From Dimargaris cristalligena (lineage: Eukaryota): a stretch of 36,708 nt of DNA. Positions 5,884 through 26,846 of this stretch are shown here, piece after piece. The stretch is taken from positions 1 to 36,708 of the forward strand of contig ML002371.1 of NCBI GenBank assembly GCA_003614675.1, read 5' to 3'. The notes beneath the pieces are model-generated. The model was not told where the DNA came from. It ran no database searches and saw nothing but the letters and a program-made list of their open reading frames with translations. Within the stretch, counting starts at the first letter, position 1. Every line of letters begins with the position of its first letter. The position numbers were made by a program, and so were the translations under genes.

Positions 5884-8130
5884 TTACATTTTAGTATAGA
5901 GACAGCCCACGGAGTCCAGCCACTGCGCCCCGGACCCGTAGATACCTGCCCACTGGTAACCCGGGGGAGGCTTCAGCACCTTGACGGTACCGCCGCGGGA
6001 ACCGCCGCACCAACCGGTTGACCGACCGTTCGTAGTGATGAATTCGAGGGAATCGATCCACCCCCCGCTGTTCACATTCATTTGCGACAAAGATTCGCCA
6101 GGCGCCAAGGGAAATTCCATGGGTTGGCCGGTGGTTTGGCCGCACTGTACGGAACTGCCGTCGGCCAAATAGGCAATGAACCCGTCCACGTACCAGCCGC
6201 TATAAATGCGGAGGTGCGTAATGGGAGGCAAGGACCGCCCACCCCGGCTTAGGGGGGCGAATCCCCCGGGTCCGACGGCCTCACGGGCATCGGCGGCCGG
6301 GACGGAGGCGAAACAGACCTGGAAGGGGACGGTGTTTTGCATCTGGCCACCGCCCAGCTGGGCGCTTTTCAGGACCAGCAAGTGTTCGTAGTGCGGAATG
6401 ACCAGGCTGTGTTTGGAGGTGAAGTCCTGGAAGTCTTCCACCTTGGTGTCCTGCTGACCGACCGAAACGGCGCAGAGGGTTACGTGGTCTTCACTGGACC
6501 AGCCCCCGCGCTGCTGCAGTTCGCTGTAGGGAAGAATGAGTTGGGTAGGAGTCGCGGCGTTGGACTCGTTCAGCTTAAGCGGATTACCCGGCGAGGGCAG
6601 GATAGCGGCGGGGGCTCGGGCCGGGCCATTCCGGGGGGCGGCGCTCTCGTCCGTATATTCGAGGTGGAATCGGTAGCGGTCATTGACCCAGACCTCGACC
6701 ATGGAGATACCCAGCGGGTTTTTGATAAACACCCCGTCCTCGAGGGCATACACTGTGGTATCGCGGGGGGTATTCGAGGCCGGCAAAGCCAGGGTATCGG
6801 TCGGCAAACGGAAACAAGGGTGGTAACGCAGACGGATGATATCTAAACGATGCCAGTGGGCGCCGGCTTCGTCGGTGGGGGTAATGGGCTGGAAGCCGGG
6901 TTCCTTGACCATGAAGGTGCGGTTAAAGTTGTTAAAGCCCCGGCTCATCAGGCCCGATGGGGTGTGGCCGAGTGTAAACAAATGGCCCACCTCGTGTAAA
7001 AAGGCGCCCATGCCCACATTGGCGGCCTTCCAGTACTGGCCACACTCCTGGGCATCGTTGGCCAGAATTTCTTCGTCAGTGGAGGTGGTATCCAGGAAAC
7101 TAGCGGGAACGTCCTCCAGGGACGCGGGCCAGGCGTGGGTACAGTGGGAACCAAACACCCCCGTACGACGGTGGCCACCTCCCCCTCCCAAAGCGGCGTG
7201 GGCCAGAATCAGGTGACGGGAGGCGTCCCAGTGGGAATCCAGGATTAGACCGGCCACGTAGCAATCGCGGTCAAAGGGGCCGCCGTAGTCGTCCAGGGCC
7301 TGCGCGAAGAGTTGGAACATCGACTCCTTGTTCGGGGCCGGAGTATCGGGCGTTTGTCGGTACTGCTGGGCCCGCTCCGGCTCGTGCATTTCCGCCAAAG
7401 TCAGTCGGGAACGCACGATAAAGACCTCCGCGGTGTTACGCAAAAAATCCGCCTGGTTCGTGAGGGTCTCGGGCAACCAGGCCTCTTCGAGGCGGAACGT
7501 CCGCCGACCGAACCCGTTGCGGAACATTTGTTCGGCCATAAAGGCCTGCCAAATATAAGCGGTACAGCGGAATTTGGCCACGGCGGCCTTGAGGTCATTC
7601 TTACCGGGACCTTGTTCGTTGGGCGGGGCGTCAAAAGTCAGGGGGGAGTCCTTGGCCACCATAATGGCCAGTCGCAGCGGGGGGTTCTGCAGGCGGGGCA
7701 AATAGTGGAGGGTGAGGAAGGTCCGACCCCCATTGTACTCGAACTGAATCAGGTTCTGGCCGGGCTCCAGGGGGACCAAACACTTGAAATGGGTGTCCAC
7801 GACGGGCCAGAACTGGGCGGGGAAGTTGGGCGGGTGCACGGTCAGGCGTCCCTCGAACTGGGTATGCGGGGGACCGGCCCGGCCGTAGACGAGCAGCAGG
7901 CGCTGGTACACGGTCTCGCCCTCCTGGACACTGAGAATGACCGGGCTGGGTTGGCTCGGGGGGGCCTGGGTCTGGGACTGCGGCGGGGGTTGGCCGTGGG
8001 GAGTGGACGGAGGTGCGTCCCGTAGGCTCAGGTTGGGAAAGGAGGGAAAGGGAGAAGGGTCCGTCCCTGGCATGTACTCGATGGGACCCGTATGGTCCTG
8101 CGGTTCGGTACCAGGCATGTAGTGTTCCAT
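5884..8130 (-). CDS. Putative zinc metallopeptidase (YIL108W-like) with C-terminal jacalin-like beta-prism domain, ~748 aa, intronless
   Basis: HEVGHLFTLGH zinc motif followed by Met-turn-like GLMSRG; FMAEQMFRNGFGRRTFRLEE and AHAALGGG family motifs. The C-terminus has repeated SGWYVDG/SGGWIDSL/GAQWLDSV jacalin-type strands. ATG at 8130 (gccATGG). Confidence 0.85.
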   Translation of the reverse strand: MEHYMPGTEPQDHTGPIEYMPGTDPSPFPSFPNLSLRDAPPSTPHGQPPPQSQTQAPPSQPSPVILSVQEGETVYQRLLLVYGRAGPPHTQFEGRLTVHPPNFPAQFWPVVDTHFKCLVPLEPGQNLIQFEYNGGRTFLTLHYLPRLQNPPLRLAIMVAKDSPLTFDAPPNEQGPGKNDLKAAVAKFRCTAYIWQAFMAEQMFRNGFGRRTFRLEEAWLPETLTNQADFLRNTAEVFIVRSRLTLAEMHEPERAQQYRQTPDTPAPNKESMFQLFAQALDDYGGPFDRDCYVAGLILDSHWDASRHLILAHAALGGGGGHRRTGVFGSHCTHAWPASLEDVPASFLDTTSTDEEILANDAQECGQYWKAANVGMGAFLHEVGHLFTLGHTPSGLMSRGFNNFNRTFMVKEPGFQPITPTDEAGAHWHRLDIIRLRYHPCFRLPTDTLALPASNTPRDTTVYALEDGVFIKNPLGISMVEVWVNDRYRFHLEYTDESAAPRNGPARAPAAILPSPGNPLKLNESNAATPTQLILPYSELQQRGGWSSEDHVTLCAVSVGQQDTKVEDFQDFTSKHSLVIPHYEHLLVLKSAQLGGGQMQNTVPFQVCFASVPAADAREAVGPGGFAPLSRGGRSLPPITHLRIYSGWYVDGFIAYLADGSSVQCGQTTGQPMEFPLAPGESLSQMNVNSGGWIDSLEFITTNGRSTGWCGGSRGGTVKVLKPPPGYQWAGIYGSGAQWLDSVGCLYTKM

Positions 8131-11100
8131 GGCGAGAATATAGTAGCAACAATAACAAGGAAGAGAGCAATACGCAGGTAGACTAGTTGAGATATAGTAT
8201 TGTGTACAATACGTCAACTGAAGCTGAGAGGGCGGGTAAGTACAATAGGAGACCGGAGGGCTTAAAGAGCGCTTAAATAGCAGTGACACGTAGCTGCCAC
8301 TATATACGTCATTAAATGTTGGAATAGCCGTCAGTGGTCCGTTTATCACCGCCGAAAATGTAGTAGGGGAGTTGTTAGCTATGGGAGTTGGAGGAGCTCC
8401 TTCTTATCAGGCGATAATTGCTTATGGTCCACCTGAGCTGTCCCGACTAACATAATCTAAAACATTGAAACCCGGCAGGTCTTGGCGACTCTTGGCAAAG
8501 CCCGTAAAGCCTCACTTTAGTAGGGGAAGAGCCCCTGTCACACCACAGTCTATAAATAACCCCAGCCTACCCACCATCAAACCCTCAGTCCTACCTTATC
8601 GATGTACATTATTGTTGTCCACTTCAGCGGCCTTTTTCTCCGAAGTTAATGACACACACACTCACTGATAAAATGGAGCACTGCTCCGCCCCCGCTTCCC
8701 CTGAATAACTCAATTAGCGTTACTTAGAATGCCCGACGTGGAATACTTCCCAAAACCCCCATAGAATACCCCGATATGAATAAGTCCAAAATGACTTTCT
8801 GTAAAGGCGGGATGTCATTGGTCTTCGCAAGCTCGGGTTCTATACCAGACCGAGTTAAATACCCTGTCCCTGAAAATCGAACAGCGACCATGTGACAGAT
8901 TCTTATAAGTTCCTATACCATATTACAATTTCTCTTTTTTTTTCACTGGGTCAATTCGGCAAATACCGGTGGCTTTCCAAAAAAAAATCGGGCTAGGGGA
9001 GGCGTAAATTTCGGGATTCGTCTTGTGTGTTCTGGGCCCCTTTACCCTTTCTGACCAGCAACGGGCCAGCAGACTAGGGTTATGCTGTCCCACAATGGTC
9101 GCTGCAAAGATCTATGGATACACATACCCGCAATGCATAGCTGGAGGGCCAGGTGAAGATGTAATTAAAGGAGACGGGCGTGACTGTAGGTGAAAGGCGG
9201 TATCCCCAGACATGGATAAAACTCGAAGGTACTGGAAAAAGGTGGGAAACGGAAGAAATTGATAGCCATCGGAGGCGTAATGGATCGAAAACGGTGGGGA
9301 ACATAATGCTATAAGGTTGGCGATATTGGGCTGGGCAGAACCGCCGGGTGATGTCAATATTGAGGCTTGGAAGGTACTCGCCCACCTACATCACAGTTCT
9401 CGGTGGAAGGTCGTTTGGGGCCTGCAATTAGGGCGGACTAAACCCCCTACCCCACCCCCACGCACTTTTCAATTTGTATTTTGTGTGTCTCCGTATCTAC
9501 CACAACCGGTCTCCTTGGCCCCCCACTATCATTATCCATCAGTCAAGAAGGGAGACCCGTCCGTCTTATTCGCCCCTGCTCGTTTCGACTGGGCTTCTAC
9601 TACCACAGCCCTTTGTGTATAAACAGTGATGGGTAGATGCCAAGGCCCGAGCGGAAAACTAGGAGAAGTGATCAGCATTATTCTAGCTCTTCAACTTCTC
9701 CAGGCTGCCCATTGATTTATCCCACTAGTCGATTTGGTGTGTACACTCGTTCCGGCCGGCACCGGATATATGCTGGAATGGTGGTCAGTTGTTCACTAGA
9801 AAACAGGGAGAAATGGTATCGGGAGGGGAGGCATCATACAAATCACCAATATATTTTTATCTCACAAGACATGCGGATGGGGTGTGTGAAAACATGCCTT
9901 GGAAATTGGTGGAATGCTTGACTGTCGGGCCTCTCAGGTGAAGGATACGCTCAAATAGGGCAAGAATATCAGCTGAAGCCCATATAATTAGCAGATATGA
10001 TTATTAATAAATGAATTCGCGAAGTGTATTAAAGTATACTATTGGGTGTAGATGGGGATTGGAATTACAATGAGTAAAAGCTGGCTCCAAATGATGTTAA
10101 GACCATCTATATAAATATATATATGGGAGAAGTTCATCCAATCTGTATAACGAAAAATCCATTAGATTCGGCCAATATTACTAGTTAAAAATACATTTCC
10201 CGTATATTTTCCCATACACGTATAATGGAAACCCTTATATAGCTGGGCCGAATTTCACCCATATATATCAGCAGATGTCAATTTTGTAGAACATTCATGG
10301 ATCTTATGATGGAGTAGTTTTACATAGTGAAATATGCTGACTGATACTGGTCATCATGGGTTGTTAAGGGGTACTAGTTAACATTTAAAATCTCAAATTT
10401 GGCCCATGAGAGACCCTCGAACGAATTCAGGGGTTACCATTGATGTTGTCCGTATATTGTTAACAAGTGTTTACTTTTAGTCAGTTCCCTTTTATCAATA
10501 TAAACGATCCTCTTTGACCCAACTATGTCCGATTTAAGTCGACATGTAAGTGTAAAATGTACCGGTCGCTAGTTATTATGCTCCTTTAATTTGGGCCTCG
10601 CCCATACACGTAAAAGCGAATCAAATCCTGGCCTGTCGATTACAGAGGGAAGCAGTCCAGGCTGTCTTTGGATTACAGGATTAGGTCTTTCGACACTTAA
10701 AAATGAAATCATTAAGTATTGATATATTCACTAAATATTAAATTGCACTTGAAAAAGTAAGTAATAATAGAAGGTCCTAGGACACCAGAGCATATAAATA
10801 TAAAAAAATGCATGCCAGGCACTACTAACAGAAGTATTATAAATAGTTGAAATCCACGCCTAGTTTTAACGATAATTTTAGAAGTCGGGCTAGAACAGAA
10901 TACACCCGATCAACTCGTGGTATCGCTCACCAACATGATTAACTGCCACAATTTGAGTGTAATTAGGTGAAGAGCAGTCTGTGTTACTCGCCCCGTTCGA
11001 CGCCTTTGGAGCTCGAAACTGCACCAAACTGCATCTGCCAGTTGTCCAACCCCAGACTGAAACGCGCCAGTGGTGGCATTCGGACTAGCCTCTTCCTTCC

Positions 11101-16892: not shown

Positions 16893-18703
16893 CGTGAGTA
16901 TGTGTGCATTTATATGAATGCCCTACGAGACCATGGTTTTACAAAGTCCAACGTTTCCATAAATATTATCAAATACTCAATATCTCAGCTTGCATAAGCA
17001 TATTCGTATACTCTAAGGTTTGCTCTCGTGAAGGTTTTGCGCATGTTGGTGACAATGCCTACCCAGTTTTACAGCATTAATGGGCCACCAGATGCTATTT
17101 GGATGATTTGAGGTCCAAGGGGTATAATTAATTCATCGAAATGGGGTAAAGGTTGGCGGAAATTGCTGCATCACCCCTATTTGAAGAATTTTAAGCCACA
17201 TTGTTTTTGTGGGACACAAAGCCGACATCTACTTACCGGTTTACGTTGGTGCATTGTTCTCCGATCCGACGAGGTGTTTATTAGTAATATCTAAACATGG
17301 GGAATGTGCGACTTTTCGGCTATTCGACAGCAATACTGGCGTTAACAGACCAACTAGACAACCTAGTTCAGGACACCGCCCATCTCCATCTATTAATGCA
17401 TAAAAATAAACTCTAACTCATACCATTGTGGCGATTTTGCCTTATTGTTTACTAACCCTCTGAAAGGATTCACAATACACCACCAGATCTGAGCGAGTCT
17501 CGCCTATAAATACACAAAGGACAATACAATAAGGAGAGTGACCCACAAGCTTGAGTACACAGTCTCATGCTCACTGAGCCCATAGGGACAGGTCCGCTGA
17601 TGCCGGTTACAAGGTAGGATGGTCACAAGTAGCACCGTTGACATGCTTATGGAAATAAGAAGTAAACAATCCTCGGGTTGATGGACCAGAAGAACCCGTG
17701 GGTGGCCTATTGTATTCGGAATTCCGAAGGATTAGCTATATAGTCATGATGTTGCTAAATAGGAGGAAAATCTAATGATCAAATTGGGGGTGGATTATGT
17801 ATTAGATATGTGCTCATTGGTATTTACCGATATTCCCTAATATTCAGATATGACGATGGCCCGCCCCTAACTAACCGGTCTATTCATTACTTCCCCCCCC
17901 CCCCCCAATGTGCTTCCATCGGTGGATGGAGTTGGTAGGGGTGCCGTGGACTGTGGTGGCATTGCCGGTTCTCTAGCTGTCGATGTGATTATATTTACCT
18001 CTAAAACCCCCGTGTGTTTGGCCAACCTCTGGGTAAATCACAGTAGTTGCCATTCCAATGATGCGCACCACCACCACCCCTGTCGCCCTCGACACCTTCC
18101 CCCTTTTCAACTCCAAGAGCAGGCGTGAGGAGGACTTCAAGAGCTTCCCCCCAGGAACATCGGTGAATAGCGCAGTTTTTATTAGATGAGCCCATACTAG
18201 TTTCCCTAATGCCTGGCTGATGGGGTAAATACAAGTAAATAAGCGAGCATCAATCAATCTGGTGGATCGACCGGCGGAGTCGGCCTTCCGTACATGGGGT
18301 TGTACAGGGGGCTGGCTGCGTTGGTTTACTAGGTCAGAAGGCACAGTGTGCATTGTCCGCTCACTCGTCCTAACCCTTCTCCTTTATGCCACTTCGAGCC
18401 TAATCAGTGGGCCCGCCGGAACGAATGTAGGCCGTTTGGAATACTACTGAAAACAAATCCAGTCCTATTCACTCCTCGCCCGTCGATGTTTGGAAGCCGG
18501 CCCATAAATCTAGATATACGTATATATACTCGTCCCCGTCGCCGGCAGTCATTAACTTACCTTTTTCTACTATCATTTGTCGGCTTAGCTCCTTTCTTGT
18601 AACTCTTTCGAAGTCATTTACCACTTTATAGCGACGCTTAATCTGAGCCTGATTCAGCCCCTCCCCCCGAATTCCGACCCGCTTCGTCTTCCCAAAAATT
18701 ACG

Positions 18704-19345
18704 ATGCGGTTTACTTTGGCCACCGTGCTTGCCGTATGGGCAACTGCCCAGTCCATCGTTGCGGCGGCCCCGACATCATCGATCCACGAACTGACCGAAA
18801 CCCAGCTCCGCAACGCTGTCCCCAAGGCCTGTGTGGTCTCGGCCACCAAGGCCGAATGTTCCCCACCCAGCAAGGCGGTCGGCCTCCTCAACGCCTCCTT
18901 CAAGAAATACGACATTGCTTCCGTGGGCCAACAGGCCGCCCTCATCGCGCTGATGAATTTCGAGAGCGGCGGTTTCACCTACAAGACCAACCTCAACCCG
19001 GCCAACCACGGGCAGGGCACTTACAGCCAGATGCAATTCCCGGCCATCGACAGCTACGTCCAATCGATCCCGGCCCTAAAAACGGACTATGCCGCGCTCA
19101 AGGCGGCTAATATGCCCGAGGACCAGTTCAAGGATGCGGTGCTGAAATTGGCCAATCGCGACGAGTATGTGTTCGGGGCCGCGGCCTGGTACTTGAAGGA
19201 GTCGGGCAAATGCAAGCAGGATGTATGGGATGCGTTGAACCAGGCGACCGATGCCGGGTTCGTCAAGTATATTCAGTGCATTAATACCGACCCTGGCCCA
19301 CGCATGGACAACTGGCACTCCGCCATCCAAGCCCTCAAGGCGTAA
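18704..19345 (+). CDS. Secreted protein, lysozyme-like/GH19 chitinase-like fold (putative), 213 aa
   Basis: Signal peptide MRFTLATVLAVWATAQSIVAA. QAALIALMNFESGGF resembles the GH19 AAFLA..HESGG catalytic-Glu helix, followed by GQGTYSQMQ and AAAWY. Strong GC3 codon bias. The CDS is secure; the family call is tentative. Confidence 0.7.
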   Translation: MRFTLATVLAVWATAQSIVAAAPTSSIHELTETQLRNAVPKACVVSATKAECSPPSKAVGLLNASFKKYDIASVGQQAALIALMNFESGGFTYKTNLNPANHGQGTYSQMQFPAIDSYVQSIPALKTDYAALKAANMPEDQFKDAVLKLANRDEYVFGAAAWYLKESGKCKQDVWDALNQATDAGFVKYIQCINTDPGPRMDNWHSAIQALKA

Positions 19346-20306
19346 TAGGTGAAGGGGTGTGACTCTGCAGCCTTACTCCCCTTATTATATACCTCCCCCC
19401 CTCATTTCACAACTCTCCTCCTCAGATATGCACCTATATTCCTCTTTTAATTCTACTGTGTCTCCTAGGTGTATGGGGAACTCCACCCGCGACACTGTCC
19501 ACTACATCCATGAAAACGGCTGCCTTGTTTTTTATTTAGTCACCTGTAAAATTTTTAACCCTACCCATGCGCCACCCGGCGTTGTGTACCTCGTCAATAA
19601 ATCATTTCCAAGCCCTACATTGGGCGTATGTTATCCGAAATTGGCTGTATATCAGTCCAGAATTTCAGATAAATGAATGGATATTTCGACTACTGTCATC
19701 GCAGTGTTGGGAGCACCCAGACCAAGTCGTAGTCCCTTCCTGTATCCTATATAGCCATCTAATATTTCTGGGGAAGAGGTCTGTTCCAGCCGAATAATAG
19801 CAACTAGACATGTCTTGGTTGGGCCTAACTAGCCAAAGGATAATTGGCATTTGTGACCAGCCTTAGTTTTATTTCGTTTCATTTTGTTTAAAAGAATATT
19901 CAATTATATGAGTATGGCGGTGGCTTGACCAATTCCAAGGATGGCCAATTTTGTCTGTTGTGGTCCCCCTGTAGTACCCAGCCCGCCAAACCAGCGGTGT
20001 CTCTCGCAGTAGATGGTTGGCGACGATTGTTCAAGAAGGCCTATGGTATTCCCCAATTGGTAGCACCACAGTCCACTTGGACTGACAAAGGGAACCGAGC
20101 TGAGGCACCTGCCATTAATCCACGGGTTTCTCTCTCTGACAACCGGAAAATTGGGAGGTGCGCTGGTAGGTAATGGGCTGGCCTTACTTATTCACCAAGC
20201 CATTCCATAAATAGCCGAGTGCAATCATAGGCTCTCTAGTCTTGGTCAAATATTCTATATTAGCCTCCCTTTGCTCCCTCGTCCTTGGCACTGTTTGGCA
20301 TCCCCT

Positions 20307-20309
<3 letters not shown>

Positions 20310-20339
<30 letters not shown>
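20310..20339. repeat. (AT)n microsatellite
   Basis: About 15 AT units read directly. Confidence 0.9.
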
Positions 20340-20341
<2 letters not shown>

Positions 20342-20776
20342 CATGGGTCGGCTCCGTCTCTGCCATAGTCTATCGGTATTTTTCTTTTGGCTTTTGCAAT
20401 TCCCCGTTGAATTGCGATGGCTTTTGCAGATGGAATTTCACCCTTTTTAGCTCCCAATCTCGGACCATTTAGCGAGACTCGGCCGCTGAGTAACCGCATC
20501 CCAATATCGCACCCCTCCGTTTTCGCTATAGCTATAGAACTCCAAAGGGAAAGCAGTATTTTCCTACGCAACTGTGCCATCGGCATTTATAGGCAAGATT
20601 GGCGGCGGGGTGACTCTCTCCCCTCACAGTTCCTAGGCCTAGGCATTTTCCCAGTGAGTGAGTCAGTGAGAGAAACTGAGGGATTTTTTTGGGGGGGGCC
20701 ATCATTTTTCTATTCTATTCTATTCTGTTTTTGTCTTTATTGTCTCTCCCTCTCAGGTGCTCTTTTATTCACCCTA

Positions 20777-22954
20777 ATGATAGCCATACCTGGAGTGGGC
20801 GTGGGTCGCGGGGTCACTTCCCCACGTCTCCATAGAAACGTCCGTGGCTTGGCTGCCACTGCTGCTGCGTCGCCGGGGTTGCCATCACGCTTAGCTATCT
20901 TACTTTGGCTGAGTGTCCAGGTGGTATTCACCTCCTTAGTCCTTTGTTCAACTCCCCCGATTACTACTACTGCTACTACTCCATCTACTTTATCCTCCGC
21001 TGCGGCCATGTCCGAGTCTATCCCGGCCATTTACACCCCTCCTGATTCACCCCCCGAAGAAGGGGTCCCTTTCCCGACTCTCGCGTCTTATACCACCACC
21101 CAACCCAGTAGTGGCGGCGGCGGCAGCTCCGCCCGTTCGCTTAATCCCGAAGGCCAGGTGGCCGGCCACGGTGACACCATTTCGGTCAATGACGAGAACA
21201 GCCTCGTGAAGCGCACCTACCAACAGGAGAAGGCCTTCTACGAAAGCCTACACGAAGACCCCGAGCTCCGGGACTTTGTCCCGCGCCTCTACGATATTAG
21301 CACCTACCCCGGCCCACCACCCGGTACCAAAGTGTCCCTATGGAAAGCCATCAAGGCTGCCTATATCAAAAGGTTCCGCCCCAAACGCGACAAGAAGTAC
21401 GTTATAACTATTGAGAATTTGACGCGCCCTTTCCGTTCGCCGTCCGTGCTGGATTTAAAGCTGGGCAGCCGGCTGTACGAGGACGACGCCTCCCCGATTA
21501 AGAAATTACGCATGTCGGCTATTTCGCGCATCACCACATCGTTCAAACTAGGGATTGCTATCAGTGGTATGCGGGTAAGTAGTACCCTCTCTAAGTACTC
21601 TTTCCCCAACTGGGCCTGGCGGGGTATCGTTTATGCATTTATTTATTTTAAAAAAGGCTCTTATTACCCCTTACTTTCCTTGTGGGTCTGCTTAATTACT
21701 GTGGCCCCCCTGACCTGCGAACGGTCTGTGTCGATAATCGGCATCGGCTTGGATCCGCTATTTTCTATTATTGCCACTGAATTGTCGGCAGTTGTAACCA
21801 GTTTTCGTTCATTTCCAATTTCTCTGATGTCACCGCAACATGGCAGTGTTATCCATCCAAATATTACTGGTTGAACGATGATGTCATGGAAGCTGGATGG
21901 GATGAACTTTTCCCCCAATGGTCCCACCTCCGTCTAACCTATAGCCATTGCTTATTTATTAACTCAGTGCGCATCACCATTTACCCCTATATCCCGCCCA
22001 CACTACCTACTACCTCACTCCCACTCTCACTAATAGGTTTTCGACCCGAGTATCAATGATTTCCAAAAATACAGCAAGTCCTTCGGCAAGAAACAGACCA
22101 CCCGAACCCTGCCCGTCGCCTTTTCCCGATTCTTCCCGGCTGCTTTTCCTGTCGAATACCGGCGTTGGCTCGTCCAATGGTTTTTGACCCGAGTGGACCA
22201 ACTGGCGGCAGTCTTGGCCACCAAGGAACTCCGCATTGTGGGCGGGTCTTTGCTATTCGTTTACGAAGGCGATCTAGTGGCGTGGGCCAAATGGATGGGA
22301 TCCTCGCCATCGGGTGGACCTTGTGATACCGCCGCGTATGGTCCACCGACTCCGCCGTCGCTATCGAGGGCGACCTCGCTGACGTCATCCTTGTCATCGC
22401 TGGATAGCGGCGTCTCAGTCAATCAGCCCAGCCTGGGCCAGCGGAGTTTTAATACAGTGGAGTCGTTATCATTCTGGCCCGACCTTGAAGGTCGCCCTTA
22501 CGATCGGCCAACCTCGCCCACGTTTACCTTCCCCAAGGCCAAATCACCGGAGCGCCACTCTTTTCCCGCCTCCGTGAACAGCCGCCATCCGATGAATACC
22601 CCCCCTCACCCGGCCTATCCATCGGGTTCGGAGTACCTGGACCCCCGGAGTGCCGCTGCTCGACAGACCCAGCTGCGGAGATCCTTAAGCGACAGTGTTT
22701 ACTCCATGCGATCCCCCGGTCGTCGGCGGTTAAATACGAACCTGGATCCCGCCTCGGGGGATTCTTACAAAGTGTGTGCTGACGATGTACTGCCCGAAGA
22801 CCTATTCGACATTCGCCTGATCGATTTTGCCCATGCCAAATGGACGCCAGGTCAAGGACCCGATACCCGACTGTTGGATGGGCTTCAAAGCGCCCGGGAA
22901 TTATTGGCCGATTATTTCGAATCCATCAGTGAGCCTCCCGTGAGCAAATACTGA
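20777..22954 (+). CDS. Inositol polyphosphate kinase (IPK family, IPMK/Arg82-like), 2 coding exons
   Basis: Exon 20777-21574 (or starting at ATG 21008) joins exon 22037-22954 in frame; the intron runs GTAAGT...CTAATAG. Motifs: QVAGH, EKAFYE, IENLT..F..PSVLDLKLG (PxxxDxKxG), TSFKLGIAISGMRV, GGSLLFVYEGD, IRLIDFAHA, D..LLDGL. Length is 571 aa, or 494 aa from the downstream ATG. Confidence 0.9.
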
Positions 22955-24310
22955 GAGAATGCGTGGCCGGCCAATGTGTAGAACGGGCCGTCAAGTGAAC
23001 AGGGCCACTGCCCGAAAACGGGACAGCTTTGTTAACATTATATGTTATTGGCCCCAAGCAGTCATATCATTATTATTTTCGGACCCAGTTTTGGGTTCAA
23101 TTATTCAGAATCAGTACTTTTTGGCTGACCTTTTTTATTTTTTTTTCATAGCTACCGAGTGGTTTTCCCCACTTATTATTAAGTGTTTAACTGTACAATT
23201 CTCGCTCATAGTAGTAATATCAATTTTGATGATTGATACGCGATTCCTTTACTTTTATTTGGCTTGTAATATTAATACGACGAATCAGGGAGGGCACTAT
23301 GCCACTCTTTCATGCTCTTTTTATTTTTGTTTGCAGGTAATTAGCGACTTGAATTTTTATTATTATCTTATTATTTACCCTCCTGGACAGTTACGTGGAT
23401 ATCAACAGTGTTTACCACATACCACTTTGTTAGTTTGCCCATTTATTTTTATACTATAGATTAGGGCCAACTCAGCTTTACAATAAACAATCTTACCCCT
23501 TTTTCCTATTTCATCGAGGTCGAAATATCATATATACTTGGAGTACCGTTCTCACCCACGGACCCCAATAGCTTAATCACCCTCACGAATTCCCCCAATT
23601 ACTGATATCATCAACATTTACATTGCTGAGTTGCTCTTTAACTGGGATTACAGCACTATGTTCCTGAAGCATTGGTTTGAACAATACGCTGTCGCTGCTA
23701 GCTTTTATAATGGTGATGTTTAGATTATGCCATTCATTAGACATTCCGTAAATTCACCTGCAGTTTATCTTGGTCCTTTTTGGTGTTCATGGTAATGCAT
23801 ATTGGCTTACCGGTTAAGGGTGTGGAATTACTGCCGGGAATGCAGTTATATCCAGCTTTGGACATTTATCGGGTAATCTGCATCACTGCAACCGTGCTCC
23901 AGCATTACATCTAAAACATAGACGTTTAGTTATGTAAATGTACTTTATTACAAGTTACTGAATCGCTAAAGGTAAAGTTCGTAGGAGAAAAAACATTCCT
24001 GGGTCACCATAAAAAATAGAACAAATAAAGCCAAAGGCGACGGTATGGATTGGTGATGGTCAGCCCTAATAGAGTGAAACGCTGGCTTGTAGCCAAAGGG
24101 GCGATTTCATCCTGCCGTGGTGCCAGATCACCGCCCGCATGTAAGGTCCACGAGAATGGATATTGGCCGAAATAGTGCGCGTATGGTTGCGCTCATTCAC
24201 GCCGTTTTGAAAGCTTGATCACCTGGCGCAGTAGCGGAACCGTACTGGCCGAAATTACGCAGGAAAGGGGGAGCCTGAGCAGTCGCGGGATCGGCCATTA
24301 TACCGGGGAA

Positions 24311-26773: not shown

Positions 26774-26846
26774 GGTTCCATAGTGTAGTTGGTTATCACA
26801 TGGGGTTTTGATCCCCGCAACCCGAGTTCGAATCTCGGTGGGACCT
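26774..26846 (+). tRNA. tRNA-Gln (anticodon TTG), intronless
   Basis: Acceptor stem GGTTCCA/TGGGACC, A-box TAGTGTAGTTGG, anticodon arm TGGGG-TTTTGAT-CCCCG, T arm CCGAG-TTCGAAT-CTCGG, discriminator T. Confidence 0.96.

Follow-up and report, generated by a model that had tools for sequence, protein, structure and literature searches.

Inositol polyphosphate kinases (IPKs) are defined by the inositol-phosphate-binding motif PxxxDxKxG, and the residues of their ATP site include a lysine in the N-lobe, the segment SLL-x-x-Y-E/D-G-D, and the aspartate of IDF-x-H. Among the closest known relatives of the gene considered here are yeast Arg82 (Ipk2) and other IPMKs (PDB 2iew and 2if8; human 5w2g), which belong to the same Pfam family. 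The gene lies in a 36,708-nucleotide stretch of DNA from the fungus Dimargaris cristalligena (positions 1 to 36,708 of contig ML002371.1, assembly GCA_003614675.1), which we will call the window. A first-pass annotation of the window, made from the sequence alone, proposed that this kinase is translated from an upstream in-frame ATG at 20777, and that the added N-terminal extension could make it a secreted or membrane-tethered enzyme. We think it likely that the extension is instead an untranslated pyrimidine-rich 5' leader or core promoter and that the kinase is translated from the ATG at 21008.

That the gene encodes an IPK-family kinase was borne out: both exons match Pfam PF03770 (IPK), with 53.1 bits for exon 1 and 63.6 bits for exon 2 (the curated cut-off is 22.2). 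PxxxDxKxG is present in exon 1 as PSVLDLKLG, and its D, K, and G are invariant in an alignment of 13 sequences. The other invariant residues (K101, S303, L305, Y308-D311, I532, D533, and H536, as numbered in the homolog P0005) are all kept in the window protein. When we ranked PDB entries with a profile of the clade to which this protein belongs (see below), Ipk2 (2iew) came first (E = 4e-51), followed by human IPMK (3e-32), IP6K (7e-27), and IP3K (1e-12). The match to Ipk2 covers nearly its full length.

The window kinase and the IPMKs have QVAGH, the N-lobe lysine, PxxxDxKxG, SLLxxYEGD, and IDFxH in common. As in the IPMKs, a variable insertion separates the last two of these motifs; in Arg82, this is the position of its acidic stretch. 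Where canonical fungal IPMKs have IKPC, however, the window kinase has KRTY. We identify the gene as an IPMK/Arg82-type inositol polyphosphate kinase with intact motifs, and on the basis of its sequence we predict that the protein is an inositol multikinase acting on IP3 and IP4.

The gene has two exons, which together encode 494 amino acids without an internal stop (21008-21574 and 22037-22951):

21008 to 21574, + strand: exon 1 of the IPMK-like kinase, with the most likely start (GCC-ATG); it holds QVAGH, the N-lobe lysine, and PSVLDLKLG

21575 to 22036, + strand: kinase intron, GTAAGT...AG, 462 nt, phase 0

22037 to 22954, + strand: kinase exon 2, through the stop codon, with GSLLFVYEGD, the Ser/Pro-rich insertion (22325-22771), and LIDFAHAKW

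At the exon junction, GMR (the end of exon 1) joins VFD (the start of exon 2), which matches the unbroken GMRVYD of relatives. Homologs align without gaps across this junction, and also across a 13-residue piece that is absent from the public model.

The public protein for this gene is BJ085DRAFT_24035 (P0001), which has 333 amino acids instead of the 494 of the homology-supported model. P0001 lacks the 13 residues that align with relatives, and it uses different intron borders, so that the conserved VFDPS after GMR is lost. It also splices out the 149-codon Ser/Pro-rich insertion (22325-22771), despite the coding-like codon use of this insertion and its counterpart in relatives. The 333-amino-acid model looks mis-spliced, and a correction to about 494 amino acids is due. 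The gene, a new and divergent member of a known enzyme family, has public entries under the names hypothetical protein or "Kinase".

The region upstream of the kinase start

The features upstream of the kinase are as follows, where KD19 is the mean Kyte-Doolittle hydropathy over 19 residues:

20310 to 20340, + strand: (AT)n microsatellite, within the non-coding gap of 1.66 kb that precedes the kinase gene

20411 to 21007, + strand: 199 stop-free codons that share the reading frame of the kinase and include ATGs of that frame at 20417 and 20777; most plausibly a pyrimidine-rich 5' leader or promoter

20777 to 20779, + strand: upstream in-frame ATG, the start proposed in the first-pass annotation; context CTA-ATG-A

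20891 to 20947, + strand: T-rich stretch (42% T) that would encode a 19-residue hydrophobic segment; KD19 of 2.34, codon score of -0.18 per codon

20948 to 21007, + strand: CT-rich tract (72% C+T, 10% G) that contains an (ACT)n repeat and abuts the start codon; this is the proposed "Thr/Ser-rich linker"

As a description of the letters, the proposed extension is accurate. The frame is free of stops from 20777 to 21008, which adds 77 residues to the 494 and gives 571 amino acids. Residues 1-38 of this model include five arginines, one histidine, and no aspartate or glutamate; the next 19 residues (20891-20947) average 2.34 on the Kyte-Doolittle scale; and a Thr/Ser-rich stretch (20948-21007) leads to the second ATG, in the context gccATG. 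There are no out-of-frame ATGs between 20777 and 21008. The kinase frame actually remains open back to a stop at 20408, and this longer open stretch includes a second hydrophobic segment, which the first-pass annotation did not mention. Farther upstream (19400-20410), all six frames score as non-coding, and the (AT)n microsatellite may be a promoter-region element. Rfam and tRNA scans found no match in the leader or in the kinase intron.

The likeness of the extension to a signal peptide or signal anchor stands only in part. Its hydrophobic core is strong enough for recognition by the signal recognition particle or for membrane insertion. However, the core of the 20777 model comprises residues 39-57, and cleaved signal peptides usually have their core in the first 30 or so residues. 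Because it begins at residue 39, the core is compatible only with a signal anchor.

To compare codon usage, we scored synonymous codon choice as a log-likelihood per codon given the encoded amino acids, so that the unusual composition of the extension has no influence. On this scale, the extension is at -0.224 per codon. Coding windows of 77 codons average +0.33 (standard deviation 0.20), and just one of 159 scores as low as the extension, while non-coding windows average -0.32 (standard deviation 0.14). The parts of 20411-21007 score -0.10 to -0.42 per codon. In contrast, exon 1 scores +0.31, and even the first 49 codons after 21008, which are poorly conserved, score +0.27. Exon 2 scores +0.13 to +0.19, with +0.18 for its disordered insertion. 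In windows of 30 codons, the score becomes positive between the windows at 20957 and 21002, that is, at about 21008. The G+C content at third codon positions tells the same story: 0.48 in the extension, as against values of 0.68 and 0.62 for the two exons and of 0.60-0.73 for five neighboring genes. Also, nine of the ten threonine codons in the extension are ACT, versus 39 of 243 (16%) in the neighboring genes. The codon use of the extension looks non-coding-like, and it switches to coding-like at about 21008.

The start codons of neighboring genes have a recognizable signature. In five of six neighbors, the first in-frame ATG is preceded by CC (positions -2 and -1), and in all six, the 120 nucleotides before the ATG are 58-72% C+T; those leaders are stop-free for 17-91 codons. 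ATG 21008 fits this signature (GCC-ATG, with 68% C+T upstream), whereas the ATGs at 20777 (CTA-ATG) and 20417 (GCG-ATG) lack the CC-ATG context. This suggests that the "linker" is the usual CT-rich tract that precedes start codons in D. cristalligena.

A start at 21008 also gives a more typical protein. Among 189 IPK homologs outside the clade, the segment that precedes the AGH motif has a median length of 20 residues, with 49 at the 90th percentile. A start at 21008 gives 51 residues; one at 20777 gives 128, which is reached by just one of the 189. The independent Joint Genome Institute (JGI) model, P0001, likewise begins at ATG 21008.

Given its codon use, the start contexts, the lack of conservation (see below), and the usual length of IPK N-termini, we favor 21008 as the main start and the extension as leader. 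We infer, rather than observe, where transcription and translation actually begin. Under this explanation, an ordinary soluble multikinase of the IPMK/Arg82 type, of about 494 residues, would be made from ATG 21008, and the 77 upstream codons would be pyrimidine-rich leader or core promoter that is not translated to any important extent. Pyrimidine-rich tracts are poor in purines and therefore poor in stop codons. Their T-rich parts would read as Leu, Phe, Val, and Ile, and their CT-rich parts as Ser, Thr, and Pro, which would mimic an n-region, a hydrophobic core, and a linker.

T-rich non-genic DNA that encodes hydrophobic segments has been described in yeasts (Vakirlis et al. 2020, PMC7005711; Tassios et al. 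2023, PMC10063215), and the 42% T stretch at this locus is similar. In the available text of those papers, however, the cases are free-standing new open reading frames, whereas the stretch here is in frame with an old gene. The window contains a second case of T-rich DNA that reads as a membrane protein: a stop-free frame of 171 codons (22944-23456, + strand), which starts just before the stop codon of the kinase and runs downstream, with a codon score of -0.55 and a KD19 of 2.42.

A frame like the extension is not rare. Dinucleotide shuffles of the whole region leave the 77 codons open in 605 of 5000 cases, and block shuffles do so in 600-955 of 4000 (12-24%). Among 4358 mononucleotide shuffles of the extension that were open, 870 contain a segment with KD19 of at least 1.6 and 49 contain a segment with KD19 of at least 2.3. 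Similarly, among the window's stop-to-stop segments of 60-200 amino acids (n = 232 from six frames, most of which are not genes), 13% reach a KD19 of 1.6 and 3.9% reach 2.3. Given these frequencies, a 77-codon hydrophobic extension is within chance for a scan of many genes.

A paralog clade in the Dimargaritales

We searched 1.84 billion representatives with the homolog P0003, which gave 2197 matches (150 listed), and we also ran a profile search, which gave 552 matches (120 listed). P0001 is the sole IPK from D. cristalligena among the 120 matches listed of those 552. We built a tree from 26 hand-chosen rows and 316 of 823 alignment columns, leaving out IP6K and IP3K. In this tree, the window protein belongs to a clade that has 100/100 support and whose stem branch is long (1.39 changes per column). 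The clade contains only gene models from the Dimargaritales: two pairs of paralogs from Tieghemiomyces parasiticus and two paralog lineages of D. verticillata and D. xerosporica. It sits among fungal IPMK-like proteins, and the canonical IPMK of the Dimargaritales is placed elsewhere in the tree. By this phylogeny, the window gene is a member of a fast-evolving paralog clade that is found only in the Dimargaritales. Metagenome contigs searched with the clade profile yielded 223 pattern matches but no confirmed relative.

The nearest relatives of the window protein are P0005 and P0153 from T. parasiticus (KAJ1925756.1 and KAJ1930438.1; 46% identity over 314 columns; sister support 91/89). At 570 and 572 amino acids, they are similar in length to the window protein, and both have a long Ser/Pro-rich insertion. 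The BLASTP alignment to P0005, the nearest homolog, begins two residues before QVAGH. We found no similarity between the window's extension and the N-termini of its relatives: the local alignment scores were reached by 14-79% of shuffles.

By their locus tags, the divergent IPK paralogs of T. parasiticus (P0004/P0152 and P0005/P0153) are about 12-14 genes apart on one contig. Two contigs of the T. parasiticus assembly are arranged in this way (151,359 and 56,077 bp), in keeping with the duplication of this assembly that is described in the available text of PMC9866270.

Could the kinase have a longer N-terminus?

Several observations weigh against reading the whole upstream region as an untranslated leader, and one rival reading is that the kinase has two starts. 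In this scenario, the leader is long, the weak ATG at 20777 is mostly skipped, and a minor share of initiation there gives an anchored isoform of 571 residues. With the Arg-rich side in the cytosol, the anchor is predicted to be of type II, and the kinase domain would lie in the lumen. We consider this scenario unlikely, although several points speak for it. The frame is open and has no intervening out-of-frame ATG, and the KD19 is high. More surprising is the length of the open frame: all 199 codons stay open in just 1 of 5000 whole-region shuffles and in 8-10 of 4000 block shuffles (0.02-0.25%), and 199 stop-free codons far exceed the leaders of the six neighbors. This oddity is softened by two other open frames in the window (153 and 171 codons), both with non-coding codon scores. 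ATGs are also scarce. The + strand of 20433-21007 holds one ATG, versus 4.9-5.8 expected, and one or fewer occurred in 34 of 4000 whole-region shuffles and in 61-85 of 4000 block shuffles. The reverse complement, CAT, occurs at a normal frequency, so the depletion affects one strand only, over 575 nt. A shortage of ATGs would be consistent with a long leader that is scanned and that includes ATG 20777, and some initiation at 20777 would then be expected. However, stretches of 340-790 nt that lack an ATG also occur in other parts of the window, some of them opposite the metallopeptidase frame (5887-8403, minus strand; see below), which makes the depletion weak evidence. Also, one (ACT)n repeat supplies part of the codon signal: without the linker, the other 55 codons score about -0.15 per codon, which argues only moderately against coding. 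Even so, the non-coding-like codon use, the poor context of ATG 20777, and the late hydrophobic core speak against a second start.

A further reason to take the dual start seriously comes from the clade. Both AGH and DxKxG could be located in 198 of 254 proteins (9 from the clade and 189 others), which left 56 unscored. In front of AGH, a hydrophobic 19-mer (Kyte-Doolittle mean of at least 1.5) is present in five of the nine clade models (P0002, P0005, P0153, P0010, and P0157), versus none of the 189 other IPKs. IPKs thus normally lack such an N-terminus, in agreement with the first-pass annotation, which described them as normally soluble cytosolic or nuclear proteins. The start of P0002 looks like a textbook signal peptide. 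When we considered residues 1-155 of P0002 as a fused neighboring gene, we found no shorter stand-alone homolog, nothing usable in the Atlas, and no match in the window. P0005 and P0153 have a stretch with a Kyte-Doolittle mean of 2.35 and no methionine between it and the kinase core, so the hydrophobic segment is hard to avoid in these two proteins; the window gene differs in having a well-placed methionine, at 21008, after its hydrophobic stretch. P0005 and P0153 share their first 82 residues exactly but differ at 25 positions in the remainder, among them 8 of 248 in the core and 15 of 195 in the insertion. P0010 and P0157 also lack a later methionine before the kinase core, and their hydrophobic N-terminus is kept across two species, with 12 of 40 positions substituted, mostly hydrophobic for hydrophobic, and no insertion or deletion. 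The missing methionines, the identity of P0005 and P0153, and the retention in P0010 and P0157 suggest that these N-termini are more than over-extension by a gene finder. All of the start codons at this locus and in the relatives are nevertheless ab initio predictions; Funannotate is named as the source of the gene models in the available text of PMC9866270, and the words "transcriptome" and "RNA-seq" do not occur in the available text of PMC6784888. An anchored isoform of the window kinase would continue this trait of the clade. On the other hand, the sister paralogs P0004 and P0152, as well as P0003, have no hydrophobic N-terminal segment, and the hydrophobic N-termini of the relatives are unlike the window's extension and unlike one another, at differing distances from QVAGH. 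As we read them, their flanking charges would give different topologies. The comparison with orthologs that the first-pass annotation called for thus came out mixed: the extension has no likeness to them in sequence, but some kind of hydrophobic N-terminus is predicted in five of nine clade models. It seems doubtful, on balance, that the Dimargaritales have an IPMK-like clade that is targeted to membranes or secretion by its N-termini and that the window gene joins it via a minor 571-residue isoform from ATG 20777.

Two other ways of translating the upstream region are much less plausible. If the true start were at 20417, the protein would have an N-terminal region of 197 residues with two hydrophobic segments, possibly minus an in-frame intron of 99 nt (20658-20756). 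This would account for the 199-codon open frame, which is the only feature here that is statistically odd, and ATG 20417 does have a G at both -3 and +4. A GTGAGT...CAG pair, 99 nt apart, bounds the possible intron, which encloses a T7G8 run and a pentanucleotide repeat. However, the codon scores (-0.10 and -0.18 per codon) and the G+C content at third positions (0.43) do not look coding, the stretch contains homopolymer and microsatellite runs, and there is an out-of-frame ATG at 20430. The kinase would also have about 248 residues before AGH, when even 128 is nearly unmatched outside the clade. The intron itself has no good branch site that we could see by eye, and it is stop-free, which would be needless if it were spliced out. 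We did not adopt it, given the weak branch site and no supporting evidence. We give a start at 20417 very little credence. It is just as improbable that the extension, if translated, is a bipartite mitochondrial presequence instead of a signal for the endoplasmic reticulum, with an Arg-rich, acid-free start followed by a stop-transfer segment. The five arginines, the single histidine, and the lack of acidic residues before the hydrophobic stretch would suit such a presequence, and signal peptides generally have n-regions shorter than 38 residues. But all of the evidence against translation of the extension applies equally here, and strings rich in Arg, Ala, Ser, and Gly are expected in any frame of a stretch that is 64% G+C and poor in A.

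Returning to the untranslated leader, the extension is probably not a real feature of the protein, and the recurrent hydrophobic N-termini of the clade are the part worth following. The idea of a secreted or membrane-tethered IPK thus finds some support in close relatives with predicted hydrophobic or signal-like N-termini, while at the window locus the codon use, the start context, and the lack of N-terminal likeness go against it. The suggestion that the fungus might be parasitic holds up: the available text of PMC6784888 includes D. cristalligena among the biotrophic mycoparasites that were sequenced by single-cell methods. If the clade's N-termini are real, these would be the first membrane-anchored or secreted members of the IPK family. 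They could then act on inositol phosphates at the membrane or at the host interface of haustorial mycoparasites, and would be candidates for interference by a mycoparasite with phosphate or inositol-phosphate signaling. A literature search found no paper on an IPMK with a signal peptide or transmembrane segment, and a search for secreted or haustorial IPK effectors found no such paper among the best matches. The locus also offers a caution for annotation. Pyrimidine-rich leaders in D. cristalligena are stop-free and read as Ser/Thr/Pro linkers and greasy helices, and upstream in-frame "signal anchors" need to be checked against codon use and start context.

Other features of the window

Three other features stand apart from the kinase gene:

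18653 to 19342, + strand: open frame of 230 codons with a coding-like codon score (+0.44) and no Pfam match; this is the upstream neighbor of the kinase gene, 1.66 kb away

26774 to 26846, + strand: tRNA-Gln (TTG), which is the sole Rfam/ARAGORN match in the window

5887 to 8403, - strand: frame of 839 codons with a putative metallopeptidase domain (PF12044) and a C-terminal jacalin-like lectin domain

Judging by its domains, the product of the last of these could be a sugar-binding secreted protease in this mycoparasite.

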